Both the position numbers and the translations under genes were made by a program. 64,000 nucleotides of DNA from the IMG/VR virus record IMGVR_UViG_2627853872_000003; one strand, 5' to 3'. The stretch is from a virus. Its lineage: Duplodnaviria > Heunggongvirae > Uroviricota > Caudoviricetes. Numbering within the stretch: position 1 is the first letter of the stretch; the number at the start of each line of letters is the position of its first letter. The notes below the pieces were generated by a model. The model worked only from the letters and a program-made list of their open reading frames with translations, was not told the origin of the DNA and did not search any database. Positions 10,258 to 63,585 of this stretch are shown in pieces.

Positions 10258-12171
10258 ATGGCATCTGCCACCAATCGCACCGAAATGCTGGCCAAGGCGC
10301 TCATGCGCGCCCGGCCTGACTTCACGCTGCACAACGCCCGCGTTTTCTCTCGTGCAGTTATCGATGCGCCCGAGATCGTGTTCGGCGCCAAGCCTCTGAA
10401 ATACCTGCCTCGCGACACCGACCATGACGGCCCCGTCCGGTTCCCACTTGACGAGTTCGCGCAAGTCGGCGGCCCCCACGGCGCGATCATGGGAATCCCC
10501 AGTTACTGGAAGCCGCGCGTCACACGCTTCGCCGAACCACGGGACCACACACCACATGCGCGCCGGGACGCTCTCGCCGGGACGCAGCGACCTTCGAAAG
10601 CCGCGGCAGCCTGGTCCCAGGTAGCACTCACCGATGCTCGCCCAGGCGACCTGATACTCGACCCGGGTGGGGACGTTCTCGGCGTGGTGGTGGCCAACGG
10701 ACAGGTGTCCGTTGGCGGAAGCTGGAAACCACTGCCTGAGGTCATCCAGGCAGGTGGTTCTGTGCATCGCGTTGATGTACGCCACCTCGACCCTCTAGCT
10801 GAGCTGAAGCCGGGCGACGCCCGGGCTTGCATGCTGGCGCAGCTGCTGCCTTTGTTCGGCTGGGAGCCAACCTCAGCCGAGGCCATCTTCCTCGACAAAG
10901 TTCTCGCGGAGGATTTTCGGAAGCCACGAGGAATCGAGACGTTGCCCGAGCTGGTGCGCTGGCTGGATACCGCTGGCGAGCCGGAGGCTCGGCAGTTGCG
11001 TGAAGTGTTGCGCTTCTGGATCACTGATCCGAGCCCCTCCGCACCGACGAAAATCGACATTCGGGAACCGAACCCGCCTGCGTCGACCGACACTTCGAAG
11101 GCAAGAAGCATGATCGAGACACTGGCAGGGAGCCATTGGGACGAGCCGATACTGAAACTGTGGCCGCCGCAATCGTCGAAGCCACAGGTGCAGGCGAACG
11201 ATGCGGACCCACTGAATGACTACTGGCCCGATGAAAGTGCCGATGTCGCCGCGATCGTCGCAGACGCCGGCGGTGTCATGCCCCTCAGTGCCTTGTTCGA
11301 CCAACTCCACACGGCGCTGTCAGCGGCCAGCACGATCGTCCTTGGTGCGCTCAGTCGCGGCGACGTGTCATTGAACCCCGATCGCACCGTGACATTGCCC
11401 AACCGACAGCTGAAATCGTTTGAAACCACCACCAACAACGCCCAGTTCATCGCCGCAGTCCAGCTGGCGCGCGAGATGGAACGGCTCCCGGCACCATCAC
11501 CACATCCGTTGCCCACCGCTACCCCTAGTGCGCGCGAGCACGCGGCTTTTCCACTCGGGGTGGGTGCCACCGGTGAGCCAGTCACCTATAGCCCCGCTGC
11601 GGATGGACACTTGCTGGTATTCGGCGGCGCAGGCCGCGGTAAATCGATGCTGGTGCGAGGGTTGGTCCGGGACGCGCTAGCCACTAACTGGTGGGGTGCC
11701 AGACACCTTAATTCGCGGAAAGATCCGGACGCGGTTCTCGACCAAATCAGGGGAGTTCACGCAGAGATAGAGATACGCCGTGCCAATCCGAAACTCCACA
11801 AGCCCGAGCTCTTGGCGCTCGACGACGCACTGTGGGCTCACTTCGATGCGCCACAACGCGAAGAGCTACACACCCTGGTTACAGAACTGCTGTCCACCGG
11901 GCGCGAACTGGGTCTCCACCTGGTGCTGATCACCCTGACACTGGATAACGAGGAGAGATTCCCATCTCGGTGGCTCGACTTGTGCTCGACGGTGCTGCTG
12001 ACCTCCAAACCAACCCACGACGACGCGGTAAAGCTCATGGGCGATGATGCGGCTCAGCTTCCGCCATCAGGCTGGGACGGTTCTGGAAAGATGCTGCTGG
12101 TTCGCCGCTTGACCGGTGTATCGAGACCGCTACGCGCGTACACGCAAGCCGACAAGTACAAGGGGTACTGA
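10258..12171 (+). CDS. FtsK/SpoIIIE-family ATPase (TraB-like DNA translocase domain at C-terminus)
   Basis: Start ATG 10258 with AAGGGAGG RBS. Walker A at LLVFGGAGRGKSMLVRGL, Walker B-like GLHLVLITL. Large uncharacterised N-terminal domain. Confidence 0.75.
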   Translation: MASATNRTEMLAKALMRARPDFTLHNARVFSRAVIDAPEIVFGAKPLKYLPRDTDHDGPVRFPLDEFAQVGGPHGAIMGIPSYWKPRVTRFAEPRDHTPHARRDALAGTQRPSKAAAAWSQVALTDARPGDLILDPGGDVLGVVVANGQVSVGGSWKPLPEVIQAGGSVHRVDVRHLDPLAELKPGDARACMLAQLLPLFGWEPTSAEAIFLDKVLAEDFRKPRGIETLPELVRWLDTAGEPEARQLREVLRFWITDPSPSAPTKIDIREPNPPASTDTSKARSMIETLAGSHWDEPILKLWPPQSSKPQVQANDADPLNDYWPDESADVAAIVADAGGVMPLSALFDQLHTALSAASTIVLGALSRGDVSLNPDRTVTLPNRQLKSFETTTNNAQFIAAVQLAREMERLPAPSPHPLPTATPSAREHAAFPLGVGATGEPVTYSPAADGHLLVFGGAGRGKSMLVRGLVRDALATNWWGARHLNSRKDPDAVLDQIRGVHAEIEIRRANPKLHKPELLALDDALWAHFDAPQREELHTLVTELLSTGRELGLHLVLITLTLDNEERFPSRWLDLCSTVLLTSKPTHDDAVKLMGDDAAQLPPSGWDGSGKMLLVRRLTGVSRPLRAYTQADKYKGY

Positions 12172-12197
12172 CCTGGGAGCGACGTCATGTCCTCGAG

Positions 12198-13072: not shown

Positions 13073-13642
13073 CTAGCCCGAGCCAGAACCAAACAACCGG
13101 CGCAATCGCTGCTGCCATGACCTGCGGCGCTCTTCTGTTCTCGCCGCATCCATCGTCAGGCCCTGCCGCGGAGGTAGGCGAAAGCGCGAAGCATGATCAT
13201 CGCCCACAGCCAGGAGTTGATCCATGGGAGAGTCGTACCTACTGATGATCACCATCGGATCCGCGCCGGCGCGGCTAGCCATCTCCTCGGCCATTCGGTG
13301 CACGTAATCAATGAATTGGCGCATAGCCGACTCAGGATCGTCCACGGGTGGGCCCGCCGCAAAGGTGCTCGGAATGACCTGCATCGGGCCGTGACTCGCG
13401 CGCAACTCGTAGTGCTCGTCGATGTAAATCTCTCCGGCGGGTTCCTCCGATGGTTCGCGTTCCCCTACCGCGTGGCTTCCAGGGCAGCCGCCGCGGGGCA
13501 GGCCATGCCAGGGCGCACCACACCGGCATGCCGGTACACGCCCCGGCCTAGTCTCGCCGGCGGCTAGCTGACTGTCGATCAAATCGTCAGCTTCCAGCGC
13601 GTTGATCTCGGCGATCACAGCGTCTTCAGGATTTCCTTTCAA
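13073..13642 (-). CDS. Hypothetical protein
   Basis: 189-aa ORF, operon-internal (4-nt overlap with the upstream gene). Confidence 0.5.
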   Translation of the reverse strand: MKGNPEDAVIAEINALEADDLIDSQLAAGETRPGRVPACRCGAPWHGLPRGGCPGSHAVGEREPSEEPAGEIYIDEHYELRASHGPMQVIPSTFAAGPPVDDPESAMRQFIDYVHRMAEEMASRAGADPMVIISRYDSPMDQLLAVGDDHASRFRLPPRQGLTMDAARTEERRRSWQQRLRRLFGSGSG

Positions 13643-14352
13643 CGGCTCGCATCTCCCGCGTCGGCGCGCTCAATCACCGTGATCTTCGGCCGCTGCAATA
13701 CGGTCTGTAGCTGGCCTCGGTACATGCCGGTTCCGCACACTGTTCCGGTGATCTTCACACGATCGCCGCGACCTACGTCGTACAGGCAGCTGGCAGTTCC
13801 CTTGCACATGAGTACCTGACCGGTCTCCAGCGTGAACACAACGATCTTCACGTACTCGGTATGGCCGGTGTAACCGGTGCGTTCGAAGCCAGCCGAGACG
13901 GTCACCGAGGCCTCCAGATCGCGCAGACGCTCCCCTTCTGTTCCAGCCGGAGTGTTGTTCAGGACGGCGCGACGCTCCTGCTCGGCATGCGCTGCTTCCC
14001 ACGCCCAGTCGAATTCGGCGGCGCGTCTCGCGGTTTCAGCCGCCTGTGCAGCCGCCGCTGCTTCGTCGGCCAGCTGCTGTCCGTGCTCACGGAACAGCGC
14101 CTCCAGGCGTGCATCGCGACGGAACATCGACACAGCACGACTGCGCGACACGCGTCCGGCTCCGTCGCAGCCGAAGCAGGTTCCACCCGCCTGGCCGGTG
14201 CTGGTCCACCAGGTGAAGATTCCGCTACCGCCGCACCGGCCACATGTCTCGGTCCAGCAGATGCGATCTGTCGCCGCCTTGCCCGGGTAGGGGTCGACAT
14301 AGGTTTCCACCGTGAATCGGCGCCCCTGGTGAGTGACGACAGCAGTACTCAT
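13639..14352 (-). CDS. Zinc-ribbon / OB-fold-like protein
   Basis: Start MSTAVVTHQ at 14352. CGRCGGSG...CFGCDGAG four-Cys zinc ribbon. C-terminal VKIVVFTLETGQ...VKITGTV looks OB-like. Palindromic motif copy 2 sits 14 bp upstream. Confidence 0.55.
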   Translation of the reverse strand: MSTAVVTHQGRRFTVETYVDPYPGKAATDRICWTETCGRCGGSGIFTWWTSTGQAGGTCFGCDGAGRVSRSRAVSMFRRDARLEALFREHGQQLADEAAAAAQAAETARRAAEFDWAWEAAHAEQERRAVLNNTPAGTEGERLRDLEASVTVSAGFERTGYTGHTEYVKIVVFTLETGQVLMCKGTASCLYDVGRGDRVKITGTVCGTGMYRGQLQTVLQRPKITVIERADAGDASR

Positions 14353-14365
14353 ACGCCTCACTCTA

Positions 14366-14382
14366 TTCTCTATTTTAGAGAA
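14366..14382. promoter_or_regulatory. 17-bp palindrome TTCTCTATTTTAGAGAA (copy 2)
   Basis: Exact copy, preceded by a partial extra half-site ctctat. 14 bp upstream of the minus gene start at 14352. Confidence 0.7.
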
Positions 14383-14464
14383 TTTCAACGGAGAAGGACG
14401 TGCCCCCGTGTCATCACCTATCGAGATGAGCACCACGCGCACCCGTTGGGCGTACACATCGGAG

Positions 14465-14707
14465 CTATCCGATGACCTGCTGCGTCGACTTGGCCGCCAA
14501 AAGCGACAGCTGCGCGATCTGAGCAAGAAGTGCGTCAGAGGCTCCTCGGCTGAGCTTGGTCGGATTGAGGTCCAGACTCAGTCCCACCGAACCGGCTTGT
14601 CCGAAATCGAATCGCAAGCGGCCTTCTGCCGGTCCAGAGGCGGTCATCACCTCCAGCACTGTCGCTAACGGCTGCGAATCCCACCGCGCGGGCAGCCGAT
14701 CGGTCAC
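14465..14707 (-). CDS. Hypothetical small protein
   Basis: 80-aa ORF. 4-nt overlap with the upstream gene 14704-15558. Confidence 0.4.
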   Translation of the reverse strand: MTDRLPARWDSQPLATVLEVMTASGPAEGRLRFDFGQAGSVGLSLDLNPTKLSRGASDALLAQIAQLSLLAAKSTQQVIG

Positions 14708-18345: not shown

Positions 18346-18609
18346 GTCAATTGGGATACGAATCGCTTTCCTTCGGCGTGCCGCGCACTCGTGTCGCATT
18401 CGTCAGCCCCGGATGTGTGCCCGTAGCTTGCCCGTCAATCGCCGCGCCACGTGGCGGGAGCCGTGACGGCCGGGCCGCGACCCCGGTCATTCCGGCGGTC
18501 AGCCCCCCATAGGAGCCGTGGCACCGAATGAACCCTGTCCTCTGCGGATGTGGCAGGTGGTCGCGGCGCCGGTAGCCCACGTCCGCGTGAAGCAGGAGGT
18601 ACATCTCTC

Positions 18610-20616
18610 ATGGTCGATTCAGCACGCCTCAAGAAGAGCGCCCGCGAGTACATGGCAGCGCACCCGGGAGTCAAATATCAGCAGGCTCTCGCGATCGTTC
18701 GAGATCAAGACCTAGTTCCGATCGCAGCAGCGTCAGATACGCCGGTAGGTCCGCCGCCACCGGTGGCGGCGACTTCCCGTGCTGATGGCGGTGATCCGGC
18801 CGGCCCGGAGGCTTGGCTGAACGCACTCGGCGGCATCCCAACCGCCGACGAACTCGCAGCCCGCTGGGCCAATTCCGACACCGAACAGAGCCTGCGAGTT
18901 CCTATCGCAATGAGCGTCGATGACAATTTCAAGTTCAGCGATTCCCCAGAACCGGTCTGGCTAGATCTCGCCGAGGCCAAACTGGGCGGCAACGGCCCCC
19001 ACGTGTTGATCACTGGACGCACCGGCAGCGGCAGGTCGGTTGCAAGCGAAGTTTTGCTCACCGGCCTGGCAGCCCTATACAGCCCCGACCGCCTACAGTT
19101 CGTCCTCATCGGCGGCGGTGTGCACCACCCGTATTTCGATCGACTTGCACAGCTGCCCCATACCGCGGCCTGGCTCTCAGATTCATCAACAGATCGAGTA
19201 GGTCTGACGGCCCTGTTGGACCAGTTGGATGCCGAGATCGCCCGCCGCGATGATCGAATCACCAGACACGGAGTAAAAGACATAGGCGAGTATCGCCAAC
19301 TGGTGGAAGCCGGCAGCGCCGATCCGTTGCCGGATCTTCTAGTTGCGATCGAAGAAGTACGTACCGTTGTGCGCAATACCGAGTCGCTCGAAAAGCGCAT
19401 CTTGCGCGTGCTCAGGGTCGGCCGGTCACTGGGCATACACGTTCTGCTCATCGATCAAGGTAATTTTGATTCCGAACTAAGCCAGCACGTCACTGCGAGC
19501 CTGAGTCTGGTTACGGGCTCGCCAACGCGCAGCCGGACATTGTTCGGCGCCGATGCCTCGACTCTTCACGGCCAGCCGATCGGATCTGCCCTCCTCCACA
19601 CGCTCCCCCCTGTCGGAGCTGACGCCCTTACGTCACTGCGGATCTTCTGGATCTCCTCGCCAGCTGAATATGTACAGGAACTACTCAGAGTCTTGGTATC
19701 CATGCCGCGCCCGAGCTATCAGATCGTTCAACTCCCGAAGCGCCGCTGGGGTTTCGACACGTTGATCGGCTTGGACGATTTCAAGGATCAGAGCCGCGCC
19801 CTGATCGCCTCAGCACGCATCGAGGCAGAGCTCGTGCGGCGCGGTATGCCGCGCTCCCCTCGTGCCATGAACTTCGCATTCACCGGGCCGTCGGGAACAG
19901 GGAAAACACTGGCGGCAAAGGCACTTTCACACGAGCTGTTCCGGGGCGGTGTCACCACAAGGGATAGCTTCGTGCAGGCGAACCGGTCTTCATTGGTCGG
20001 CACCGTCGAGGGTGAATCGGCAGTAAAGACACGGAAAGTCCTGGAAGAAGCGCGGGGCGGAGTCATCCTCTTGGAGAACGCGCATGAACTCATACAGCAG
20101 CGAGGATTTGGAGGAGACCCCTTCGGCGCAGACGCCTTGAGCGCCTTGCTGGACTTCATGGACGGCAACAAAGGCGAACTTGTAGTGATATTCAGCGGCG
20201 ATGAACCATCCCTCGAGCGGTTCTTCAACGACAATCCCGGTGTCCGCACTCGTCTGCAGCACCAGATTCGTTTCGCCCCCGCAGATTCCGAACAACTTTG
20301 GGAAATTCTCGTTCGGCATGCAGAACAGAGCGGCCGAGTGATCGACGCCGGGGCACGTGAGAGGTTCCTTGAGACCGCTACGAAGCTCCGCGCCACGCTC
20401 AACGGTCGTGGATCATCGATGCTCGACGTACTCGGCAACGGGCGCTTCGCTTCCAGCATCTGTGAGCGCGCGCAACATCGTGCTGCGAGTCGACTCGCTG
20501 GCGCGGAATTGTTGACCCTGACTGATTTGGATCTACTGCTGCTCACGACTGACGATGTCAACGGCGCCATCGACGAACTGATCCGCACATTCAAGATCGA
20601 TCTCGCCGTTAGCTGA
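18610..20616 (+). CDS. FtsK/SpoIIIE-like ATPase fused to CbbX/EccA-type AAA+ ATPase
   Basis: N-terminal half: HVLITGRTGSGRSVASEVLL (Walker A), LLVAIEEV (Walker B-like). C-terminal half: NFAFTGPSGTGKTLAAKAL (Walker A), GGVILLENAHEL (Walker B), arginine-finger region. Resembles the CbbX-type AAA domain of EccA/SpoVK. Confidence 0.75.
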   Translation: MVDSARLKKSAREYMAAHPGVKYQQALAIVRDQDLVPIAAASDTPVGPPPPVAATSRADGGDPAGPEAWLNALGGIPTADELAARWANSDTEQSLRVPIAMSVDDNFKFSDSPEPVWLDLAEAKLGGNGPHVLITGRTGSGRSVASEVLLTGLAALYSPDRLQFVLIGGGVHHPYFDRLAQLPHTAAWLSDSSTDRVGLTALLDQLDAEIARRDDRITRHGVKDIGEYRQLVEAGSADPLPDLLVAIEEVRTVVRNTESLEKRILRVLRVGRSLGIHVLLIDQGNFDSELSQHVTASLSLVTGSPTRSRTLFGADASTLHGQPIGSALLHTLPPVGADALTSLRIFWISSPAEYVQELLRVLVSMPRPSYQIVQLPKRRWGFDTLIGLDDFKDQSRALIASARIEAELVRRGMPRSPRAMNFAFTGPSGTGKTLAAKALSHELFRGGVTTRDSFVQANRSSLVGTVEGESAVKTRKVLEEARGGVILLENAHELIQQRGFGGDPFGADALSALLDFMDGNKGELVVIFSGDEPSLERFFNDNPGVRTRLQHQIRFAPADSEQLWEILVRHAEQSGRVIDAGARERFLETATKLRATLNGRGSSMLDVLGNGRFASSICERAQHRAASRLAGAELLTLTDLDLLLLTTDDVNGAIDELIRTFKIDLAVS

Positions 20617-22505: not shown

Positions 22506-23339
22506 TCACGCGCTGCCCTTCTTGTCGTCGACAATCAGCCGCACCTTGAGCCGCTCCAAGACCGGCGCCAGGTAAGTCGCGAAATTGTCGGTATCGCTCG
22601 GCCCACCGTGCAGCATGCCGATCGCCTGTGCGTCGCCTCTGCTGTTGACGACGAACACCGGCGCACCCGAGTCCCCCTGTACTGCGGCACCACCCCACTC
22701 GAGCTGGTCGTCTCCAGCAGCGATCAGCGGCCCGCATGTCAGACCTGAACGAGAACCATTCATGCACACCGGAGTTCCCACAGGAAGAGCCTTGGCCGAC
22801 GGGACCGACATCACGCCACGCAGCCGTATCCCGTCGTTTATCACAGTTCCGTAGGCCGTTTCTTGTTGTGCTGGAGACAAGAAGAACAGGGCCGCGTCAT
22901 ACCGGCGGCCGGCGTCATCGACTCCGCGTTCGGCGTTCTGCAGCGGCGAGAGGTTTAGGCGACCAGCGCCTTCAGCGTCGGTGTACATCCACAGGGGCGC
23001 ACCTTCTTTGCGATCGCAGTGCCCGGCTGTCAGGTACCCGATGTCGCTGCGAGTGCTGACAATCGGCCATGAAATGGTGCATTCAGACACCTCGGTGGGA
23101 TCGAACTGCTGGACCAAGCTCACCCCGGGTCGTGGGTACGCGGCAGCAGTGAATGCCACCGGCGGCCGTGAGCCGCGGACACCGGCGATCGATATCCACG
23201 CATCACTGCCGGGCGCCGGTTCGGCATTGGCCTTCGGCTCTGCGACCCAGCTGGTCGCCGTTGCAAGTACGAGCGCGACCGCCCAACCAGCGGCGCGCGC
23301 GGCGCACCTTCTCCCGCGCCGGGAGCTGGCAGATCTCAT
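22506..23339 (-). CDS. Secreted trypsin-like (S1) serine protease
   Basis: Signal peptide MRSASSRRGRRCAARAAGWAVALVLATA. Catalytic His in TAGHC and Ser in GDSGAPV. Confidence 0.75.
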   Translation of the reverse strand: MRSASSRRGRRCAARAAGWAVALVLATATSWVAEPKANAEPAPGSDAWISIAGVRGSRPPVAFTAAAYPRPGVSLVQQFDPTEVSECTISWPIVSTRSDIGYLTAGHCDRKEGAPLWMYTDAEGAGRLNLSPLQNAERGVDDAGRRYDAALFFLSPAQQETAYGTVINDGIRLRGVMSVPSAKALPVGTPVCMNGSRSGLTCGPLIAAGDDQLEWGGAAVQGDSGAPVFVVNSRGDAQAIGMLHGGPSDTDNFATYLAPVLERLKVRLIVDDKKGSA

Positions 23340-23536: not shown

Positions 23537-24364
23537 ATGTCCACAGATAAGCGTCCAGTTCTGTCGGCGATAGTCGCCGCGGCGGCAATCGCTGCGATCG
23601 GAGGCGGCGTCGCGCATGCTGACCCCGCATCGGATCCGACTTCAGATGTGGCGACAATCACCTGCGATATGCCGGATTGCGGCACCGAACCGGCAACCAA
23701 ACCGATTGTCGAGCACCATCTCGTCGACGAAGAGTCAGCGCCTGAGCCGGTCATCGAGGCGACAGACGAAGAGGCCGCCGCCGAACCTGTCGACGAAGCA
23801 CCGTCAGTCGAGGATGCAGCACCCGACGAAGAACCCATCACGGTAGAGGAACCGATACCCGGCGCTGCTCCGTCACGTCCCCTGGTGCTCGTGCCGGTTG
23901 CTTCGACCAGGCCTGTCACCGAGGCAGCCGCGATCGATAAGTCCAAGATCATCTACACCGCACACCCTGTCCCCCATGTCACCGATGCGGACATCTCGGC
24001 CGGGTTGCAGGCCGCCGGCGTAAACCCACGGCTATTTGGGCAATTCGACACCGCCACACGCACGATCATGGGCGGGGAATCCGGCGGCGCAACCAACGCC
24101 GTGAACCGCGGAGATTCCAACGCCTGGGGCGCCCGGCAGCCTGACGGCGCACCAGCTGGAAGCTCGCGCGGCCTCATGCAGACTGTCCCAGGGACTTTCG
24201 CAGCCAATCATGCCCCAGGCACCTCCACGTTCATCTACGACCCGGTGGCAAATATCGCCGCGGCATGGCGCTACATCGCCGTGCGCTACCACGTTGATCT
24301 GCACACCGGCACCGGTTTGGTCACCTTCATGGCGCGCGGCGTCGGCCACGGCGTCGGCTACTGA
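23537..24364 (+). CDS. Secreted lytic transglycosylase (SLT domain) protein
   Basis: Signal peptide, acidic linker, C-terminal ESGGATNAVNRGDSNAWGARQ...SRGLMQ (ES...GLMQ motif of family-1 lytic transglycosylases). Confidence 0.7.
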   Translation: MSTDKRPVLSAIVAAAAIAAIGGGVAHADPASDPTSDVATITCDMPDCGTEPATKPIVEHHLVDEESAPEPVIEATDEEAAAEPVDEAPSVEDAAPDEEPITVEEPIPGAAPSRPLVLVPVASTRPVTEAAAIDKSKIIYTAHPVPHVTDADISAGLQAAGVNPRLFGQFDTATRTIMGGESGGATNAVNRGDSNAWGARQPDGAPAGSSRGLMQTVPGTFAANHAPGTSTFIYDPVANIAAAWRYIAVRYHVDLHTGTGLVTFMARGVGHGVGY

Positions 24365-26682: not shown

Positions 26683-28053
26683 GTGATCAATGAGCAACTT
26701 CAGGCGATCCTCGAATCCGGAGCGAGCACGACAACCGACGAACAGCCACCCACGTCAGATGCGCTAGCACAGCAAGATCCACCGCTGTCGGAGTTCGGAG
26801 ACAGTCGTGGTGAATCCGCCCAGGACACAAACGAAGACGGCCAGGCTCGGCCCACCGAGGCGGATAAGCCCAAAGACACGGTTCAAGCGCGCATCCAGGC
26901 GGCCTTGACCGCCTATCCAGAAATGGCGCCGATCGCTGAGTCTGCCGGGGCCGATATTCGCATGAACCCTGACGGCACCATCAAAGTCTCCGACGCCATG
27001 CGCGCTGCGATGCGTGCGCTGGTTCCGGGACGTGACAAGGCCCCAGCTGACGGCCCCTATCGCCGCATCAACAGCTGGCTCACTGCTGACAACACCGTCA
27101 CACCGGTGACCGAGACGTCACCGTACTTCACGGTCTCCCACTGGCATTGGCTGGCTGCCAAATCGATGGTGCGCCAGATCCCGATCGAGCTGGGGCCGAC
27201 TTTTCCGCATCTATCCACCTCAGAGGCGCAGATTAGTCACGACCTCACGGCGTGGCAGGCCCTCGACGAACACGGCCACTTGACCGACGAGGCCAAGCAG
27301 ATGTTCGACGCAGTAACAGGTCACGCCGAACTGACTGTGTACTGCACGGTGCTTCTCTACGCACAGCGACGGGCGCCTGTAGAGGTTCCTGCCGAATTGA
27401 AGCCGTACGGCGTTCAGGCCGCGGTACGTGATGTTCCCCGTGTGACTTTCGTGATCGGCGTGGGCAAGCGCGAAGTGGTCTCAGCGCTGATCAACAACAC
27501 CACCGTGGTGTTCAGCCGCCGACTGCGCCGCGATGGAGCCAGCGCCGACGCCGCGGCTGCTGTTCTTGACCTCTTGGATCCTGAAGGCCAATGGCCGGCC
27601 TACCCGCTCAAGACCCCGATCGTCCTGCCGGGGGCTGTGGTCGATCAACTCCACTCGGACTCGGATGCCTCGAAACTCTTCGACAGCGAACCCGAGCCGG
27701 ACGCTGACGAGAAGATTCGTGCCGAAGCCGATGCGGTACGTGAGCGTGCCCGCAAGGCAGCCCGCAACGTGCTGAAAGCAGCCAAGACGCCCGCAGGAGC
27801 CCAGGCAGCAATTGCGGAAATCGCGGGGTGCACAACCCACGCGCTGGCGACAGTGACGGTCAGCACAAGTGATGTCGATGTGTCACGAGGCGAACCCGGC
27901 GCTCTGGCCTTGGCCTTCATGCGGGGCCGGGGAATTATCGCCTCATACCCAAGCGGCTCGGGCATGTTCAAACGCGTCACGTTCAAATCCGGCAACATAG
28001 ACGGCATCAAAAACGGCATCGATGCGCTCAGCAATGCCTTCAGAGGGGCTTAG
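26683..28053 (+). CDS. Hypothetical protein
   Basis: 456-aa ORF with GTG start. Acidic N-terminus. No motif recognised. Confidence 0.5.
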   Translation: MINEQLQAILESGASTTTDEQPPTSDALAQQDPPLSEFGDSRGESAQDTNEDGQARPTEADKPKDTVQARIQAALTAYPEMAPIAESAGADIRMNPDGTIKVSDAMRAAMRALVPGRDKAPADGPYRRINSWLTADNTVTPVTETSPYFTVSHWHWLAAKSMVRQIPIELGPTFPHLSTSEAQISHDLTAWQALDEHGHLTDEAKQMFDAVTGHAELTVYCTVLLYAQRRAPVEVPAELKPYGVQAAVRDVPRVTFVIGVGKREVVSALINNTTVVFSRRLRRDGASADAAAAVLDLLDPEGQWPAYPLKTPIVLPGAVVDQLHSDSDASKLFDSEPEPDADEKIRAEADAVRERARKAARNVLKAAKTPAGAQAAIAEIAGCTTHALATVTVSTSDVDVSRGEPGALALAFMRGRGIIASYPSGSGMFKRVTFKSGNIDGIKNGIDALSNAFRGA

Positions 28054-54676: not shown

Positions 54677-54684
54677 AGCAGAGA

Positions 54685-54727: not shown

Positions 54728-54736
54728 CTCAGGTGT

Positions 54737-55192
54737 TCAGCCGAACAGAACCAGCGTCACAGCGACCGGCGAAGCCTCTGCGACCTCACGAATGATCTGC
54801 TCGGCCACGGCAGGATCCAGACCGCCGATACCGCCGCCGATAAGTGGTAGCGCGACAGAACCGATCCCCTGCTTATGCGCCAGGTCTAGCCCCTGAGTCA
54901 GAGATGCGCGCAGCCACTGCTCGGTCGCATCGGGACCTGGCTGATCCTGACTCGCACAGTGGATGATGGGGCGACCCAGCCCGGCGTCACGGCTCGTGTT
55001 ACGAGTGAACACGGCCGACCCGGGCGTGATCCGCCCCTGCTGCGCAAGGATGCCGTACTGAGTCATCGCGTCGGGATAGCGGTCCGCCATCACCGAGGCC
55101 AGGCCCCCGGTGACGCCCTGGCAATTCACTCCGTGCGCCAATGCCTCAGCTGGATGGGCGAACAAGTCGCCGGTCTCGACGGTGAAGCTCAT
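54737..55192 (-). CDS. Macro domain (ADP-ribose binding/processing) protein
   Basis: GDLFAHPAEALAHGVNCQGVTGGLA, GSAVFT, ALPLIGGGIGGLDP are typical MacroD/YmdB-type motifs. Confidence 0.75.
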   Translation of the reverse strand: MSFTVETGDLFAHPAEALAHGVNCQGVTGGLASVMADRYPDAMTQYGILAQQGRITPGSAVFTRNTSRDAGLGRPIIHCASQDQPGPDATEQWLRASLTQGLDLAHKQGIGSVALPLIGGGIGGLDPAVAEQIIREVAEASPVAVTLVLFG

Positions 55193-56262
55193 CGATGCCT
55201 CCTCAGACTCGATCCGAATGGGGGACGTGACAGATTGTCTTGTATGTCCCCCAGCTGCCAGGGTTCAATGGCACGGGCCCGGCTCAGTTTTGCGAGCTTG
55301 CCGAGCAGTAGGTCCGACATCTTGTCGCCCTGAGCTTCGGCGTCACAGTCACCTTGGACGTCTACGAGAGCCGGATACCTTGCGTCGATGTGGAAGCCGA
55401 CCATTGGGGTTGGATACAGATCCGATGGCAACTTGCGCAGCATTTTTCCGTACGGTCGGCCAGCCGTTATGTGAGCGGCCTCGTCAGTCCCAATCAGCGC
55501 ACGTGAGTGCTCCGGTCTGTTGACTCTCAGTGAGAACTTGAATCCCAGTTGAGCATCCAGACCTTCAAGCGTCGACTCGGAGAAGTGTTCCCCGGCCAGA
55601 ACCACGTGCACTCCGGTCAAGCCTCCGTCCAGTGCGATGCCCATGAGCCGGTATCGCTTCTCTGGACTCTCCTGCAGGACCCAGCAGAAATCGTCGATGA
55701 CCGCTACCAGATCTGGTAGTGGCGGCCAGTCGCCTTCGACAGAGTGTGCACAGCGTCTGCGGCGGTACTCAGCGCTACTTCGGCATCGATGTAGTGCGAG
55801 CAGTTTTGTGCGCCGTTGAATCTCCTCGGCGATCGCGGAGATCACCATGTCAAAGGATTCTTCGGAGGAGTTGTCGGCCCACACGTTAGCGACCGTGTGG
55901 GGCAACTTTTCGAAACCTCGGAACATAGCGGGCCCCATGCCGTCAGCCAAGAACAGCGAAAGCCGATCCGGCCCATACCTGGTCGCGAGCGACAAGACCA
56001 TCGATCGCAGGAAGTAACTTCTTCCTGCCCCGGTGCGCCCCTGCACGGCACCGTTGGTTCCGTCACGTGAAAAGTCCAGGGTGCTCAGCTCTGGGATAAG
56101 CGCATCGCCCACACGCAGATGGCCTATCGGTATCGCGACCGAGTCAGCGTTAGCGTTCCGCGCCCATGCCGCCTCGGGGTCGTAGGTTTCGATGTCGCTG
56201 ATACCGAGCACGTCGAAGAAGCCCGGAACCCTGCCCTCATTTTCTGTATCGATGGTGCTCAT
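55189..56262 (-). CDS. FtsK/SpoIIIE-like single-domain ATPase
   Basis: Walker A GRTGAGRSYFLRSMVLSL, Walker B VAVIDDF. Stop overlaps the macro gene start (ATGA), indicating translational coupling. Confidence 0.7.
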   Translation of the reverse strand: MSTIDTENEGRVPGFFDVLGISDIETYDPEAAWARNANADSVAIPIGHLRVGDALIPELSTLDFSRDGTNGAVQGRTGAGRSYFLRSMVLSLATRYGPDRLSLFLADGMGPAMFRGFEKLPHTVANVWADNSSEESFDMVISAIAEEIQRRTKLLALHRCRSSAEYRRRRCAHSVEGDWPPLPDLVAVIDDFCWVLQESPEKRYRLMGIALDGGLTGVHVVLAGEHFSESTLEGLDAQLGFKFSLRVNRPEHSRALIGTDEAAHITAGRPYGKMLRKLPSDLYPTPMVGFHIDARYPALVDVQGDCDAEAQGDKMSDLLLGKLAKLSRARAIEPWQLGDIQDNLSRPPFGSSLRRHR

Positions 56263-57050
56263 GTGGCATCGTGATCCTCATCGTCCTCCTCATCCATTCC
56301 GAGGGAGACGGCTACGGGGACTTCCGGGTCGTCAACGTCCAGATCCGGGTGATACGTGTGCGCAGACAGCACCGCTCGAAACACTCCAGCACACGTGAGG
56401 GTGACAATCGATGCTGGGTGCTCTCGCGTGTACAGCTCGACGGGTTCCTTGAATACCGCGGCGATAGCGCTCATCTTCTTGATCACGTCCGAGCCGAACG
56501 CCTGGACCTTGCCGACCTTCAGCGGTGCCGTCGTCTGGTCGTCACCAAGACCGCGCGTGCTCAGAATTTCCTTGGCGCCGCGGGCCGACAGTCGAGAGAT
56601 CGTCGATGCGATCGGGAAGTCGTCGACGTCTTGCAACGGGATGTAGTGCCGCGAGTCCGCTTCTCCAGGGGCTCCGTCGGTGAGTGTGCGCATGAGCAGC
56701 GTGGAGCCGTTATCGACGACCGACAACTCGACATCACACTGAGATTCCTTGTCGATCTTCTTGACGGCCGACGCCGCGTTCTTGGCTGCCGACAGCAACT
56801 GGGAAGCCTGATCGGTCGAGAACTTCACCAGAGGCAGCGTTCCGTCACATCCGAAGATCGCTTGGCCCGGACTGTTTCCGTCCGAGGCGATGAACGCCAA
56901 GCTGTTCTGCGTCCCAACTTCGCCGGTCTCGACGCGCGTGGAGCCCAGTACGACAGCGGCATGCGTGGGGTCATCGTTGCCTGCATACGCCATGACCTTG
57001 GCTGCTGAGAGTCCTTGCACGAATAGTTGGTTGTCGATAACAACGGTCAT
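56259..57050 (-). CDS. Hypothetical protein with acidic C-terminal tail
   Basis: 263 aa ending DEEDDEDHDAT. 4-nt overlap with the downstream FtsK-like gene. Two repeated about 120-aa halves are possible (clamp-like?), which is unsupported. Confidence 0.45.
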   Translation of the reverse strand: MTVVIDNQLFVQGLSAAKVMAYAGNDDPTHAAVVLGSTRVETGEVGTQNSLAFIASDGNSPGQAIFGCDGTLPLVKFSTDQASQLLSAAKNAASAVKKIDKESQCDVELSVVDNGSTLLMRTLTDGAPGEADSRHYIPLQDVDDFPIASTISRLSARGAKEILSTRGLGDDQTTAPLKVGKVQAFGSDVIKKMSAIAAVFKEPVELYTREHPASIVTLTCAGVFRAVLSAHTYHPDLDVDDPEVPVAVSLGMDEEDDEDHDAT

Positions 57051-57668: not shown

Positions 57669-58445
57669 ATGAGCTCGCTGAAATCTCCACCTGAAAACGA
57701 CAAGCTGCTGAGTCAGCTCCTACAGACGCTATTCGCGCTGGCTGCCGTGGCGGTCATTGTGGTGCTGATCGTGAACGGCACCTTGTTCGGCAAGGACAAC
57801 CGGATACCGTCGGAGCTCAGCAAAATCACCGGTCAGGAACAACGCGATGAAGGAGCGCCACCGAGCGAATCGACAATAAGCGGTACCGGAACTCCCAGTC
57901 CTGATCCATCCACACTGACCGTCGCTGCGCCCGGATCCAAAAATGGATACGCCCGAGCACGATTCGGACAACCGTGGACAGATGACGTCGACATCGAAGG
58001 TGGGCACAACGGCTGCAGTACCCGAGACGATATTTTGCAGCGCGACCTCACTGGCATAACCCTTTCCGGCTCATGCAAAGTCATGTCCGGAACACTTGCC
58101 GACCCGTACACCGGACAGGTCATTTCGTTCGTCTACGGCAAGAAGACATCCGCACTCGTACAGATCGATCATCTGGTGAGTTTGGCGAACGTTTGGGTCT
58201 CCGGCGCAGCGACCTGGGACTTGCCCGAACTCAAGAAGATCGCGAATGATCCACTGAATCTGCTTGCCGTCAACGGATCTTCAAACGAGAGCAAGGGCGA
58301 GAAATCAGCCGATCAGTGGCTGCCGGAAAACACAGCTTTCGACTGCTCGTACGTCAAGCGCCAAGTGATGGTGAAGAACAAGTACCGGCTGACGGTGACA
58401 GCTGCCGAGAAAGCCACTATGCAGCAGTTTTACGGCGCCTGCTGA
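57669..58445 (+). CDS. Membrane-anchored DUF1524/HNH-like (GmrSD C-terminal type) nuclease
   Basis: N-terminal TM helix LFALAAVAVIVVLIV. Motifs IDHLVSLANVW...NLLAVNGSSNESKGEKSADQWLP resemble the His-Me finger DUF1524 family. Confidence 0.55.
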   Translation: MSSLKSPPENDKLLSQLLQTLFALAAVAVIVVLIVNGTLFGKDNRIPSELSKITGQEQRDEGAPPSESTISGTGTPSPDPSTLTVAAPGSKNGYARARFGQPWTDDVDIEGGHNGCSTRDDILQRDLTGITLSGSCKVMSGTLADPYTGQVISFVYGKKTSALVQIDHLVSLANVWVSGAATWDLPELKKIANDPLNLLAVNGSSNESKGEKSADQWLPENTAFDCSYVKRQVMVKNKYRLTVTAAEKATMQQFYGAC

Positions 58446-59307: not shown

Positions 59308-62300
59308 CTATGCAGACTGCCGAAGCGCCTGCTGCTCTTGCTGCGATCGCCGGGCCACCGCGTCGACGTCGATTCGTGCGGTCTGCACCATCACGTAGTC
59401 GTCGGCGTCGACGATGATCCGCCCCTGTCCGGCACGCCAGCGCATCGGCTTGAGGTGGTACGCCTGACCGATCGGATCGCCGGACGACGGCGGGCTGGCC
59501 AGCTGCAGGATGGGCGCCATCATGTTCTCGCGCAACGCCACCAGGAACTCAGATGACTTCACCCTGCCCGCGAACCCGCTGCTGCTGTCCGAGACGATGA
59601 AGTGCACGCCGAGGTCCGTTCCGGTAGCGAGCAGTTCACTGACGCTCACGCCGCCGTATCGCACCTCATCGAACACCGACTTGGCCGAGTGCCCCTTGGA
59701 CATGTTGGCGAAGTTGTCGACAAACACGTACACCTCGGGTCCGGTGAAGAACGTCCGCGAGCTCAGTTGCTCGGCGGTCGCATCATCGGTGGGACGGCGC
59801 GACCCCATCAGCTTGACCAACATCTCCGCTGTGTCAGCGATGTCCTCGGCGCTGGTGACATATCCCGGTGGACGTATCCGCTCGCGAACCATCGCTCCGT
59901 CGCGCTCCACTTCCCGGAACTTGGCAGGCTTGACGAATCCTCGCGCGTACAGACGATCTCGTTCTCCTAGGTGCTGCCGCAACGGATCGATCACAATGAT
60001 GATCGCGTCCTTCGGGGTGAATTGACGCATCACCGACTCCATGACGCTGCGCAGCAAGTTGGTCTTGCCGGCGCCCTTCTCGCTGTAGACCAACAAGTTC
60101 TGCGAGAAGTTCGGAACCGGAGCCAAGGACAAGGTGTCCATCCGCACGCCCAGCGGGATGATCGTGTTCACAGGGTGGCGGTCCTTGTCGCTGAGCGGGG
60201 CGAAGGCAGACCACACCTGCTCGTAGTCGATCACCGGGTCTGCCGGCAGCACCCTGACCACGCGCTGCTCGGCCAGTTCAGCTGATAGATGCAGGCACAG
60301 GTTCCGAATCTCTTCACCATGATCGTGGATCTTGAAATCCTTCATACCCTTGACATAACCGTCCTCTTCGATCTCCCGGAAGATCGGAACAGCGGTGCGG
60401 CACTGCAGCAGTGTCAGCGGGTCCAAAGACCGACCAGGCTGATCCACCGGAATGCGCTCGCTCAGGGTGAAGCGCACTTCGGAAGAAACCTTGGCCCCGG
60501 CGTAGTCCGTCGACGGCAGCTGAACACCGCCGTTGACCTCCGCGGTGTAGTGAGTCACGTTGCCCGCGTTACCCGACCCTCCCGAGTCCGCGGTGTACAC
60601 CAGGTGCACACCCACAGCTGCACCCTTATCGAGGATCGGGCGCAGCAGCTGCGCACGCACAGCGCGGTCATCCTTCTCACCGAGGAATCCACCAATGCCG
60701 TCAATGGCCACAATCACGTACCCATACGGGTCATCTGCCACAGGGGTATTGGCCTTGGACGCCAAATATGCGTCAACCGAGGATGCTTGGCGGTCGACCA
60801 TCTCGCGGCGTCGCACTTCGATCAAGCGTGAAGCCTCACCGAGAATGCGCGCGGTGGTCTCGTCGTCTTCCGGTCGTGCGTACGCCGCGACATTGGGGCT
60901 GTCTTTGACCTCTCCGAGCTTGCCGGTGCCGTAGTCGGCGAGCATGAATGCCAAACGCTCCGGGCCGTGTTGAATGCAGCCGCACACGACCAGTGTCTGA
61001 AGCAGCGTGGTACGCCCCGACTTGCCTGCACCGGCGATCACCTGGTGCGGGATGTTCCCGCCGAAGTCCATGAACCACGGCAGTCGCGTGTGCTTTTCGG
61101 GGGCATCAAGGTCGCCCACGCGGATTTTCAACCCCTTCACCTCTCGGGTCAGATTGAGCGTCGGCAGCGACAAAGGCTCGCGCAGCGACGGCTTCCACAG
61201 GTCCAAGGTGCGCATATCGGACAGTCGCGAGGCCTTCTCCAGGAGCACGTCGGCCATCTTCTCGCCGAATTGTTCCTCGGTGACCTCCACCGTGTCTTCT
61301 CCGACCTCCGGAGTGAATCCCCGGGTAGTGAACAGCGTGAACGGAACTACAGGCTCTGCAACTACACCTGAGCCGTCCGCCCGGGAGCGGGCACGCTCTG
61401 TCACGGTTCGTCGGATGTAGGGGGCCTCGTGGTGGAACGCCGCCACTTCGACAGGAGCTGCGTCAGTGGTGAACTTGCGCAGGATCTTTCCCTTGAGGCC
61501 ACCTTTCTTGCCCACCATCGTCGCTGCGTCGTCGGTGCCGAGCATCGCGATGGAATAGCTCGCGCTGTTAACCGACAGCGAGTAGCGGAAACTCAAGTGC
61601 TCAAAGAGGTCACCGATCACGTCCTTGTTGATGAACTGGCTGCACATCACCAGGTGCATACCCAGCGAGCGACCAACGCGACCGACGCGGATCAACAGAT
61701 CCAAGTAGCCGGGACGTTCCTTGAGAAACTCACCGAACTCGTCGATGATGACGATCAAGTCCGGAAGCGGAGGCCAGCTTGGATCGTTCGGGTGCTTCTT
61801 CTGCTGCTCCCGGTAGTCGAAGATGTCCTTGCAACCCTTTTCGGTGGTGATGAACTCCTCGCGGCGATTCACTTCGCCGTTGATCACCGCACCGAGCCGG
61901 TCGACCAGCTCCATCGTGTTCTCAAGGTTGGAGATAGATGCCACGACATGCGGCAGCCCGTCCATTCCCAGGAACGTTGCGCCGCCCTTGAAGTCGGCCA
62001 GGATCAGTGCGACTTTGTCCGGGCCGTACATGGCGATGAGCGCCAGCACTATCGCGCGCAGGAAGTACGACTTACCCGATCCGGTACGTCCGGCCACCGC
62101 GCCGTGTGGGCCGTTGCCGTCGCGGTTCTCCTCGTAGAAGTTCAGGTAGGTCAGCTCTGAGGTGAGTTCGTCGCCCTTGCGGTAGTAGCCGAACGGAACC
62201 TTGATTTCATCGGTATAGGCGTTGCGCTTCCACACTTCGATCAAGTCGTGGGTCTCGATATCGCCGATCTCGAGTACTTCGAAGAAGTCCGGAATGTGGT

Positions 62301-63585
62301 CGGGGCGATCGTCGACGACGGCTCCGTCGACGCCGTAGTTGCGTGGGCGCCACTTGTACATGGCCCGTGCGAATACCTCGGCTTGCGCGATCGTTACCGA
62401 GTCCGCGGCGGCCGCGTCGTAGTCGTCGACTGTTGAAACACGGCCGTCCTTGAGCAGAATGCGGCTCTTCATCTTTACGGGATCGGTGACCAGGTCTTGG
62501 CCGTAGCGCACCACGAACCAGGTCATGCCGTTGACTCCGCCGGAGATGTTCGCCGGCCATGACACCATCGCGTCGGGCAGATCGATGATCAGTAGCAGAT
62601 GTGGTGGGCGATCGTCGCTGTCCTCGTTGCGCATCCGCTCGATCTGCGCCGCGTGCATCGCTGCGAATTCGTCGAGGCTGCGCCATGTGAGCAGCCGTGC
62701 GCCCAACCCCTTTTCAACCCGCGTCACATCTTCGGTATGTGGCAGCCACTTCACCCATTCCCACGTCTTGGGGTCGTTGGTCACCACGCCGATGTTCAGA
62801 TCACTGGGCCGATGGTTGAATGCCAGCGACATAAGCATGGCCCGTACAAGCCCTAGCCTGCCTTCCTCGTCACCGCGCATCGCATACGCAGGAAACTCGT
62901 TGAGCCGCACATCGATCGGAAGGTTTGCCACTACAGACAACGTGTTGATGGCGCGGTCGTAGCGCACCATTGTCGCCGGTTCCTGCATCTCGGGGACGAC
63001 GTCGTCCGCCTGGATCAGCTTGGGATACAAGGGCGCCACACCGATCCCGACACGGGCACGCAGGTATGGGTTGGACGTCAGATTCTTGACATCCGGGTCC
63101 GATTCATCGGCTGGCGCAACTACCCGGCCGATGTCGAGATTACGGTCGGCCTGCCACATCTCGTGAGTGCCGACCAGCGACAGAAGGTCAGCCGGATGCG
63201 GGAAGCACATGGTACGTAGGTCGTGCATAGCGCGGCCCTGGTCGTAGATCTCGAAACGCCTCTCGCGCAGCTCGAGATCGTATTCCTCTATCTCTTGGTC
63301 GATGTCGCCCCCGCTGCTGCCCTGGTTGCGCATCTGCATGGCGTACATCAGCGGCATCATGAGCATGAGCGGCATGCTGGAGAGCATGGTGACGATGGCG
63401 CGCTGACCGGTGACCAGTGACATCACCACCATGCCGATCATCGCGGCGACCATGATCAAAGGCATTGCGCGAAGCCAAATGGGCCGCTTGTCCGGAGCGG
63501 GCAAGCCGAGCGGTTCCTTGATCTGCACACCGGTGGGCAACAGCTGAACTGACTCTCGCGGCGGAGCCCGGAAAACGGTAAACAT
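59308..63585 (-). CDS. EccC/EssC-like type VII secretion FtsK/SpoIIIE triple-ATPase
   Basis: 1425 aa. Two N-terminal TM helices. ATPase domain 1 GRTGSGKSYFLRAIVLAL / IIDEFGEF, domain 2 AGAGKSGRTTLLQTL, domain 3 SEKGAGKTNLLRSVMESV. Domains 2 and 3 are degenerate, as in EccC. Confidence 0.85.
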   Translation of the reverse strand: MFTVFRAPPRESVQLLPTGVQIKEPLGLPAPDKRPIWLRAMPLIMVAAMIGMVVMSLVTGQRAIVTMLSSMPLMLMMPLMYAMQMRNQGSSGGDIDQEIEEYDLELRERRFEIYDQGRAMHDLRTMCFPHPADLLSLVGTHEMWQADRNLDIGRVVAPADESDPDVKNLTSNPYLRARVGIGVAPLYPKLIQADDVVPEMQEPATMVRYDRAINTLSVVANLPIDVRLNEFPAYAMRGDEEGRLGLVRAMLMSLAFNHRPSDLNIGVVTNDPKTWEWVKWLPHTEDVTRVEKGLGARLLTWRSLDEFAAMHAAQIERMRNEDSDDRPPHLLLIIDLPDAMVSWPANISGGVNGMTWFVVRYGQDLVTDPVKMKSRILLKDGRVSTVDDYDAAAADSVTIAQAEVFARAMYKWRPRNYGVDGAVVDDRPDHIPDFFEVLEIGDIETHDLIEVWKRNAYTDEIKVPFGYYRKGDELTSELTYLNFYEENRDGNGPHGAVAGRTGSGKSYFLRAIVLALIAMYGPDKVALILADFKGGATFLGMDGLPHVVASISNLENTMELVDRLGAVINGEVNRREEFITTEKGCKDIFDYREQQKKHPNDPSWPPLPDLIVIIDEFGEFLKERPGYLDLLIRVGRVGRSLGMHLVMCSQFINKDVIGDLFEHLSFRYSLSVNSASYSIAMLGTDDAATMVGKKGGLKGKILRKFTTDAAPVEVAAFHHEAPYIRRTVTERARSRADGSGVVAEPVVPFTLFTTRGFTPEVGEDTVEVTEEQFGEKMADVLLEKASRLSDMRTLDLWKPSLREPLSLPTLNLTREVKGLKIRVGDLDAPEKHTRLPWFMDFGGNIPHQVIAGAGKSGRTTLLQTLVVCGCIQHGPERLAFMLADYGTGKLGEVKDSPNVAAYARPEDDETTARILGEASRLIEVRRREMVDRQASSVDAYLASKANTPVADDPYGYVIVAIDGIGGFLGEKDDRAVRAQLLRPILDKGAAVGVHLVYTADSGGSGNAGNVTHYTAEVNGGVQLPSTDYAGAKVSSEVRFTLSERIPVDQPGRSLDPLTLLQCRTAVPIFREIEEDGYVKGMKDFKIHDHGEEIRNLCLHLSAELAEQRVVRVLPADPVIDYEQVWSAFAPLSDKDRHPVNTIIPLGVRMDTLSLAPVPNFSQNLLVYSEKGAGKTNLLRSVMESVMRQFTPKDAIIIVIDPLRQHLGERDRLYARGFVKPAKFREVERDGAMVRERIRPPGYVTSAEDIADTAEMLVKLMGSRRPTDDATAEQLSSRTFFTGPEVYVFVDNFANMSKGHSAKSVFDEVRYGGVSVSELLATGTDLGVHFIVSDSSSGFAGRVKSSEFLVALRENMMAPILQLASPPSSGDPIGQAYHLKPMRWRAGQGRIIVDADDYVMVQTARIDVDAVARRSQQEQQALRQSA

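Follow-up and report, generated by a model that had tools for sequence, protein, structure and literature searches.

The nearest described relatives of the locus considered here are the ESX-P5 loci, hybrid type VII/type IV secretion system (T7SS/T4SS) loci on giant, relaxase-free linear plasmids with tRNA array units (Yano et al. 2026; PMC12803027). Our subject is a 64,000-nucleotide stretch of DNA (IMG/VR virus record IMGVR_UViG_2627853872_000003; 'the window' throughout), and in particular the eccB-eccC gene pair at its far end, along with an espG-like gene and two further genes for EccC-type ATPase domains, all borne by a large integrative element of Mycobacteroides. The ESX-P5 loci of linear plasmids belonging to the pS2b type in M. 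avium, of pMYCSM02 (Mycobacterium sp. JS623) and of the M. intracellulare and CBMA213 plasmids form the nearest outgroup, with identities of 31-33% for EccC (a range that also takes in a Rhodococcus plasmid), 37-44% for EccB and 29-39% for EspG, and with a related SLT-domain protein. Their carriers resemble the present element in being large and relaxase-free and in having tRNA array units (PMC12803027), but they are plasmids, whereas the carrier here is integrated at a tRNA gene. ESX-P5 loci also hold full-length EccA, VirB4, TcpC/VirB8, a MinD-type ATPase, EccD, MycP, EccE, PPE and EspC/WXG-like proteins, all of which are absent or unrecognisable here, EccA being reduced to its AAA domain, which is joined to an EccC-D1-like one. 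The locus of pMYCSM02, for instance, encodes TcpC, EccA, EccB, EccC, VirB4, a MinD-like protein, EccD, MycP, EccE, EspG and PPE; the Rhodococcus plasmid and one metagenomic contig have EccA-EccB-EccC with no EccD nearby.

Compared with the canonical systems (ESX-1 to ESX-5), the locus has a homologous EccB, a three-ATPase EccC with transmembrane (TM) and DUF regions, an EspG and an EccA-type AAA domain. It lacks EccD, MycP and EccE and has no recognisable Esx, PE or PPE gene, and its EccC is only ~24-26% identical to canonical plasmid-borne (ESX-P) EccC. The M. marinum plasmid pRAW needs its ESX-P for DNA transfer by conjugation (cited in PMC12803027); its ESX-P1 and T4SS-like locus is likewise ESX-derived, borne by a mobile element and accompanied by an SLT-type hydrolase, but comprises a complete ESX-P1 with VirB4, TcpC, a VirD4-like protein and a relaxase, and none of these T4SS parts was found here. 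Integration at a tRNA gene, an FtsK-fold ATPase and the lack of a relaxase are shared with the TraB-bearing actinomycete integrative and conjugative elements (AICEs) of the pSAM2 and pSVH1 type, although the present element matches no TraB equivalog, yielded no clt repeats on inspection and is far above their typical 9-24 kb. In the T7SSb of Firmicutes an EccC/EssC-type ATPase works without EccD, EccE and MycP; those systems, however, have membrane partners of their own (EsaA/EssA/EssB, not detected here) and neither EccB nor EspG. No description of an EccD-less module of the present kind was found in the literature.

We propose, with moderate confidence, that the window carries a reduced ESX set derived from an ESX-P5-like locus (eccB-eccC, an EspG, a fusion of an EccC-D1-like domain with an EccA-type AAA domain, and a free-standing D1-like protein), lacking EccD, EccE and MycP and borne by an integrative element, and that it serves protein export, most likely in a transfer role. 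Open reading frames (ORFs) were called heuristically, by length and codon-position G+C (the window is ~62% G+C), and every called ORF was scanned against Pfam. The members of the set are as follows.

59308..63585, minus strand: EccC, complete, 1425 amino acids, with two TM segments, a DUF/stalk region and three ATPase domains
63606..64000, minus strand: 3' end of eccB, 131 codons and the stop, in the last 395 bases of the window (PF05108 match)
18550..20616, plus strand: fusion of an EccC-D1-like domain with an EccA/CbbX-type AAA+ domain, likely start 18610, with an AAA lid (AAA_lid_6)
55189..56262, minus strand: free-standing EccC-D1-like protein, 357 amino acids, with GAGRS as its Walker A (Lys to Arg) and IDD as its Walker B
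26683..28053, plus strand: EspG-family T7SS chaperone with a 145-residue N-terminal extension

The EccC protein passes the equivalog cutoff of the EccCa model TIGR03924 (525 bits; cutoff 509), falls slightly short on the EccCb model TIGR03925 (313 bits; cutoff 347) and also matches the EssC model, at 314 bits. Residues 7-1001 align to M. tuberculosis EccC5, the matches to this protein and to T. curvata EccC spanning the TM, DUF, D1 and D2 regions (PDB matches at 1e-99 to 1e-103), the last domain aligns to the D3 domain of EccC3, and two hydrophobic segments lie at the N-terminus. Canonical Walker A and B motifs are found in D1 (GSGKS and IIDE) and D3 has GAGKT, while D2 (GKSGRT) carries a Lys-to-Arg change in Walker A. 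The protein is intact, at 1425-1426 residues, in 14 of the 15 members listed from a cluster of 90, and its exact sequence is present in several Mycobacteroides species. The eccB fragment at the window's edge aligns to the EccB of Tsukamurella; in contigs carrying the exact EccC, the full gene encodes 576 amino acids, ends 20 nt upstream of eccC and scores 297 bits on TIGR03919 (cutoff 154). Between variants of the element the ratio of non-synonymous to synonymous substitution rates (dN/dS) for eccB is 0.05-0.08: the gene is under purifying selection, and the genes are therefore maintained.

Both halves of the fusion protein have an ESX counterpart. Its D1-like part, with a degenerate Walker A (GSGRS) and a Walker B of IEE, scores 126 bits over positions 392-656 of TIGR03924, and its AAA+ part (GPSGTGKT) scores 175 bits over positions 276-557 of the EccA model TIGR03922, the AAA half alone being covered (cutoff 467); in the PDB the protein matches the AAA domain of EccA1 (3.4e-39) and D1 of T. 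curvata EccC (2e-37). The TPR domain of EccA is missing, with an EccC-D1-like domain in its place, and the Tsukamurella orthologue has two FtsK domains followed by the AAA. The N-terminus (window 18610-18700) has a motif, RLKK.AREYMA.HPG..YQQALA.V, ahead of the D1-like domain that is common to relatives of 640-1000 amino acids. The free-standing protein scores 59.6 bits on PF01580 and 155 bits over positions 396-647 (D1) of TIGR03924, and has no counterpart in the M. aubagnense and M. fortuitum versions of the locus; it is probably a pseudo-ATPase or a regulator. Both of these extra D1-like domains have the Walker-A Lys-to-Arg change, which is specific to these copies since relatives of the same architecture keep GKS.

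Assignment of the 26683-28053 product to the EspG family is by transitive homology. In tblastn it matches genes annotated as EspG in ESX-P5-type plasmids (E-values of 2e-14 to 6e-9), and against the EspG of pMYCSM02, which itself passes PF14011 (44 bits; cutoff 27), it gives 29% identity over 286 residues by BLASTP (residues 149-424 against EspG 6-264; 1.5e-24) and 4.7e-25 by phmmer. The direct tests (Pfam, phmmer against the PDB, hhalign with two-sequence profiles, and a single-sequence AlphaFold2 (AF2) model with a predicted local distance difference test score (pLDDT) of 37) were uninformative.

No window ORF matches EccD, EccE or MycP in Pfam. As regards EccD, a YukD-like domain with ~11 TM helices, no such polytopic protein is encoded by the window, its 20-kb flank or the orthologous loci; the window and flanks likewise gave no match to Peptidase_S8/mycosin, the only protease being an S1-fold enzyme, and none to EccE. 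EccE is also missing from some ESX-4 loci. Neither VirB4 nor TcpC/VirB8 was found, by Pfam of the window ORFs or by tblastn of ORFs against the pMYCSM02 and Rhodococcus loci, a DUF87/HerA-like gene occurs in the Tsukamurella version only, and no ORF scanned has a relaxase domain.

The original prediction, read from the letters of the window, had listed four FtsK/SpoIIIE-family ATPases, among them the complete EccC with two TM helices and the single-domain protein at 55189-56262, and had reported no EccD, EccE or MycP in the window; all of this holds, and the profile searches that it called for, covering EccD, EccE, MycP, VirB4 and TcpC in the window and 20 kb beyond, found none. Its FtsK-CbbX fusion does have both domains, the EccA character of the AAA part having been missed. 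It erred in seeing no EccB, given that 63606-64000 encodes the C-terminal 131 residues of one, and in finding none of the other ESX core genes, and it also overlooked espG. The ordinary plasmid-borne ESX locus that it had in mind as the counter-case, with eccB, eccD and mycP just outside the window, is borne out for eccB, which lies at and just past the edge; eccD, mycP and eccE are absent from the 20 kb beyond eccC.

The carrier is defined on its left side by an attachment-site repeat.

5940..5982, minus strand: 43-nt copy of the 3' part of tRNA-Val(CAC), the left boundary of the large element

Positions 1-5982 are matched at 100% in strains without the large element, where the rest of tRNA-Val(CAC) follows, then tRNA-Gly/Cys/Val and chromosomal genes. 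The 43 nt being the 3' part of this tRNA, the large element begins near 5983, and from there on the window covers the greater part of an integrative element, over 78 kb long, in tRNA-Val(CAC) of Mycobacteroides. The tyrosine integrase at 1-1209, the only integrase seen, is not part of the element that carries the ATPases; it belongs with two RNase T-like exonucleases (all three within 1-5900) to a separate islet of ~6 kb (window 1-5939), which is retained where the large element is absent; no third copy of the repeat was found to the left of the integrase. Many genomes of Mycobacteroides (M. immunogenum, M. saopaulense and subspecies of M. abscessus) encode exact copies of the EccC-like and D1-like proteins and of the integrase, and the locus is chromosomal, as these copies sit on contigs of up to 5.3 Mb. 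Occupied and empty alleles of the tRNA-Val site, together with the MULTISPECIES label that the exact EccC carries within Mycobacteroides, argue for recent mobility, and that it moves between strains and species is clear. In plasmid and phage collections, megablast with the window returned only matches of 47-55 bp or none, one scan each of a genome-contig and a viral-contig collection gave no relative of the EccC, and the element is apparently absent from GTDB representative genomes.

The same arrangement, an HTH (helix-turn-helix) regulator, eccB-eccC and a convergent lppX gene with no eccD, recurs in the M. aubagnense chromosome, in M. fortuitum, in a metagenomic contig (61% EccB identity) and in Tsukamurella tyrosinosolvens; no EccD, MycP or EccE was found within 10 kb of eccB-eccC in any of these four contexts. 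A GmrSD-type nuclease gene, a gene for a 263-residue protein and a Macro gene are also found in some, though not all, of them. Gene for gene, the Tsukamurella element keeps the order of window 18.5-63.6 kb, sharing first the FtsK-AAA fusion, S1 protease, SLT protein, a large protein, the EspG-like protein and two small proteins, and then a primase-like protein, PolA, a helicase, WhiA, the 263-residue protein, the nuclease, LppX, EccC and EccB; in 138 kb of it, no EccD-like protein was found. In EccB the EccD-less modules form a tight clade at identities of at least 52%, the next clade, which includes M. avium complex plasmids, lying at 37-44%. Since related elements of other genera conserve this partial ESX set, it probably represents a variant that works and not one that is broken or cut off. 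The Tsukamurella record (PLSDB NZ_LR134455.1, 'plasmid 13') has housekeeping genes (cobalamin synthesis, lnt, rbpA, uvrA) and is a chromosomal contig, so that its labels 'circular' and 'non-mobilizable plasmid' are misleading; we rejected it as evidence of a plasmid lifestyle.

Between the fusion gene and the PolA gene lie the candidate substrates of the system and two wall-associated enzymes.

22506..23339, minus strand: serine protease of the S1 type (chymotrypsin fold), secreted, with TAGHC and GDSGAP motifs and a signal peptide rich in Arg
23537..24364, plus strand: exported SLT-domain lytic transglycosylase (Pfam SLT 24.6 bits, cutoff 21.3) with an N-terminal hydrophobic segment
24401..26635, plus strand: 744-residue protein with a helical N-terminal half and a Pro/Ala-rich C-terminus, directly upstream of the espG-like gene
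28063/28117-28425 and 28464-28763, plus strand: two helical proteins of ~100 residues, directly downstream of the espG-like gene

The 744-residue protein has neither a signal peptide nor a TM segment, matches nothing in Pfam, NCBIfam, PHROG or the PDB, and is kept in synteny in Tsukamurella at 42% identity; it may be counted as a candidate T7SS substrate. The two ~100-residue proteins adjoin the EspG-like gene in Tsukamurella too, and are possibly small T7SS substrates or partners; their best sequence signal is B. anthracis EsxB at an E-value of ~1, and no WXG100, PE or PPE profile matches them (Pfam; hhalign probability of 0.1% with two-sequence profiles). The S1 protease is 48% identical to a gene annotated as an S1 family peptidase at the same position in Tsukamurella, with an NCBIfam match to the Rv1815 family (1.7e-10) that is below cutoff, and the SLT protein is 63% identical to its orthologue in Tsukamurella and 41% to the SLT protein that pMYCSM02 encodes in its T7/T4SS locus. 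Both enzymes had been correctly recognised beforehand; the 'NlpC/P60-like' label, for which neither the 744-residue protein nor its C-terminal fragment has a Pfam match, was dropped, and 'Esx-sized helical proteins' has, at the sensitivity of these searches, no WXG100 profile behind it.

Synthesising these findings, we suggest a model for how the module would work. EccC, with its intact D1 motifs, would form an inner-membrane export unit with EccB, either alone or borrowing EccD and MycP from a host system; M. abscessus has ESX-3 and ESX-4. EspG would deliver one or more element-encoded substrates, for which the 744-residue protein and the two ~100-residue helical proteins are the candidates, whilst the EccA-like AAA fusion and the two Lys-to-Arg D1-like domains might act as cytosolic adaptors or regulators of an EccC hexamer, and the S1 protease and SLT transglycosylase, with their export signals, could remodel the envelope alongside the exported proteins. 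That proteins are exported is suggested by the EspG chaperone and the intact D1 of EccC. The least certain step is a role in cell-to-cell transfer or in establishment of the element: the module may possibly be used for cell-to-cell transfer, by analogy with the plasmid relatives of EccB and EccC, which sit in T7/T4SS transfer loci, and with pRAW, whose conjugation depends on ESX-P. Of the original prediction, then, a non-canonical T7SS-related apparatus on a mobile element still stands, its conjugative part being an inference with no VirB4, TcpC, relaxase or TraB equivalog found.

A number of points weigh against this proposal. EccD is integral to the membrane complex in the solved ESX-3 and ESX-5 structures, so that a T7SSa machine without it would be unprecedented, and complementation by the host would require interfaces conserved at ~25% identity. 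No WXG100, PE or PPE signature is present in the 744-residue or the two ~100-residue proteins, and no secretion substrate was found; the failure to find VirB4, TcpC, a relaxase or a TraB equivalog leaves conjugation without that support. The 20 kb past eccC were reached via look-ups of exact proteins and the right end of the element lies further on, such that the missing genes could be found there, and the gene calls in the window are, as noted, heuristic. A stronger version of our proposal holds that EccB-EccC, EspG and the accessory ATPase domains make up an autonomous T7 machine that works without EccD or MycP and moves capsid-less, phage-like tRNA-array elements between cells of the Mycobacteriales; this we regard as distinctly doubtful.

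Amongst the alternatives, the one that fares best, though we rate it as unlikely, is that of a large temperate prophage or phage-derived element, with ESX-like accessory genes that reprogramme host ESX-3 or ESX-4, for example by a new EccC/EspG specificity for phage effectors or toxins. Prophages of M. abscessus are known to carry ESX-dependent polymorphic toxin cassettes, and the cargo here has a phage character: a PolA that contains an intein-like insertion, helicases, RNase H, exonucleases, DUF2786, a NAMPT/PRPP-synthetase/NUDIX/Macro block (PRPP, phosphoribosyl pyrophosphate), the tRNA array and RtcB, to which the Tsukamurella element adds RNA ligases, Thg1 and numerous tiny ORFs. There is a strong match of ORF 13639-14526 to phrog_4095, a family seen only in phages, a possible toxin with a partner protein lies near the far end of the sequence reached, and in M. 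fortuitum Imm61 lies beside eccB. No terminase, portal, major capsid or tail gene was found, however, by Pfam or PHROGs in the window and scanned flank ORFs (84 kb in Mycobacteroides) or in the Tsukamurella element's large ORFs, DNA searches of the phage collection and IMG/VR gave no match, and no true phage record encodes EccB. The sole EccB match under a phage name is GenBank KC960489, 'Mycobacterium phage Adler', a circular record of 95.7 kb flagged UNVERIFIED_ORG. Its ESX-P locus encodes EccB, EccC, PPE, two WXG100 proteins, EspG, a MinD-like protein and EccA, with further ORFs that fit EccD, MycP and EccE by size and position alone; we rejected it as a phage precedent for EccB/EccC, as it is a mislabelled ESX-P plasmid.

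Quite unlikely, in our view, is a second alternative, in which FtsK-type ATPases pump DNA as in AICEs of the pSAM2/pSVH1 type, with the element's double-stranded DNA moved into a neighbouring cell, without a relaxase, by EccC and/or by the remaining FtsK-type protein of the window.

10204..12171, plus strand: FtsK/HerA-superfamily P-loop ATPase, likely start 10258, 637 amino acids, Walker A GAGRGKS and Walker B LLALDD

On PF01580 this protein reaches only 21.5 bits, under the gathering threshold, and its fold was taken from a model: its C-terminal 200 residues adopt the FtsK/HerA fold in an AF2 model (pLDDT of 72-85 in the domain), with the FtsK motor, EccC, EssC, HerA and TcpA as top Foldseek matches. 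The whole-protein model is poor (pLDDT 55), the ATPase core alone being usable. In favour of a DNA pump are this fold, the lack of a relaxase and the evident mobility of the element between strains and species, and the same idea has been raised for the relaxase-free giant ESX-P5 plasmids (PMC12803027). Against it, the protein does not match the plasmid_TraB model (NF041214) and no clt-like repeat array was found near its gene, for which reasons the earlier 'TraB-like' label was rejected. The mere 13 homologues found, nearly all from Mycobacteroides, share the C-terminal ATPase core, with the N-terminal 440 residues variable, and the Tsukamurella counterpart is only weak; a single local match of 78 residues to VirB4 is too weak to count. 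The protein-secretion architecture of EccC and its cognate EspG point, moreover, to protein as the cargo.

The two remaining alternatives can be dealt with briefly. It is very improbable that we are looking at an ordinary, complete plasmid-type ESX locus cut by the window's edge, with eccD, mycP and eccE just outside, for although eccB does straddle the edge and the pMYCSM02 relatives keep EccA, EccB, EccC, VirB4, EccD, MycP and EccE together, this is largely refuted by the 20-kb flank and by the same absence in the four orthologous contexts and in the 138 kb covered of the Tsukamurella element. Nor should eccB-eccC and the extra ATPase domains be taken for decaying, functionless remnants of an ESX-P, which we think most unlikely since, despite the missing core genes and the Walker-A changes in both extra D1-like domains and in D2 of EccC, the dN/dS of eccB is low, D1 keeps its canonical motifs, and full-length EccC and EccB occur in many genomes and, with the gene order unchanged, in four genera.

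We therefore return to the reduced ESX set as our preferred reading, and to the genes that lie alongside eccC.

56259..57050, minus strand: conserved 263-residue protein, overlapping the D1-like gene by 4 nt and always near eccC
57669..58445, plus strand: membrane-anchored GmrSD_C (DUF1524) HNH-type nuclease (Pfam GmrSD_C 3e-12) with an N-terminal TM segment
58493..59236, plus strand: LppX_LprAFG-family lipoprotein (Pfam 1.5e-24), lipobox LAVGC, convergent with eccC

The 263-residue protein has a Tsukamurella orthologue of 63% identity, and in M. aubagnense and M. fortuitum its place is taken by proteins of 262-263 residues; it gave no family match. The nuclease gene is syntenic in Tsukamurella and M. 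fortuitum, and the lipoprotein, which confirms one of the lipoproteins claimed in the original prediction, is present in every orthologous module examined.

Beyond the window, the 20 kb past eccC hold genes for a divergent XRE regulator and for NT5C, small ORFs, an array of 36 tRNAs along with HNH and RtcB genes, and then the possible toxin-partner pair. The array lies ~6.6-19 kb past eccC in the same element, has anticodons for all 20 amino acids and is interrupted by an HNH endonuclease, insertion sequence elements and, in a subset of strains, RtcB. Apparently it is the 'tRNA array unit' of M. abscessus genomes (PMC5966550), but whereas the survey of chromosomal arrays by Morgado and Vicente (2018; PMC5966550) saw no signs of recent integration around them, the array here is carried by an element whose tRNA-Val junction is defined and for which an empty-site allele exists. 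HNH homologues proved poor markers in other genera; in Tsukamurella the gene is a housekeeping one. At ~20 kb past eccC, an ORF with a weak Tox-REase-5 match is followed by one for a 524-residue protein of two internal repeats; the two may be a toxin-immunity pair. In M. fortuitum, the gene adjoining eccB is that for the Imm61 immunity protein.

Several observations on the remaining cargo can be added. The PolA gene (30010-32805, minus strand) holds an intein-like insertion of 283 residues at 30751-31599, starting with Cys and ending with Asn before a Ser, within the conserved motif TGR(L)S/S..P..Q (...ATGRM/CLPENQ...YLTGN/, the slashes marking the boundaries); the 641-residue Tsukamurella orthologue has no such insertion. 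A block at 51161-55192 (minus strand) encodes NAD-salvage and ADP-ribose functions (NUDIX, NAMPT, a RyR-domain protein, a PRPP-synthetase-like protein and a Macro domain) and resembles the NAD-reconstitution counter-defence modules of phages; a fragment of PRPP-synthetase has 55 bp in common with mycobacteriophage Tourach, at 89% identity. The replication region has two WhiA-like paralogues (39013-40044 and 41861-42814, plus strand), 1.8 kb from one another and each with the full set of three WhiA domains, and the match of ORF 13639-14526 (minus strand) to phrog_4095, a phage family of unassigned function, is at 3e-97.

EccD is viewed as an obligatory core subunit of the T7SSa, and a conserved set that lacks it is a natural test of which subunits are needed, or else of whether mobile elements plug an ATPase and chaperone of their own into host ESX machines. 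If the stronger version of our proposal were true, the module would be a minimal T7SSa and, for the M. abscessus group, a new horizontal-transfer route. The tRNA array now has a mobile context, in the form of a tRNA-Val insertion site and an empty-site allele, that had escaped the earlier survey. In the M. abscessus complex the element is common, and it carries, besides the long-noted tRNA array unit, other candidate anti-defence functions (NAD salvage, Macro and RtcB); its mode of movement matters for gene flow in this pathogen, and possibly for its resistance to phage therapy.

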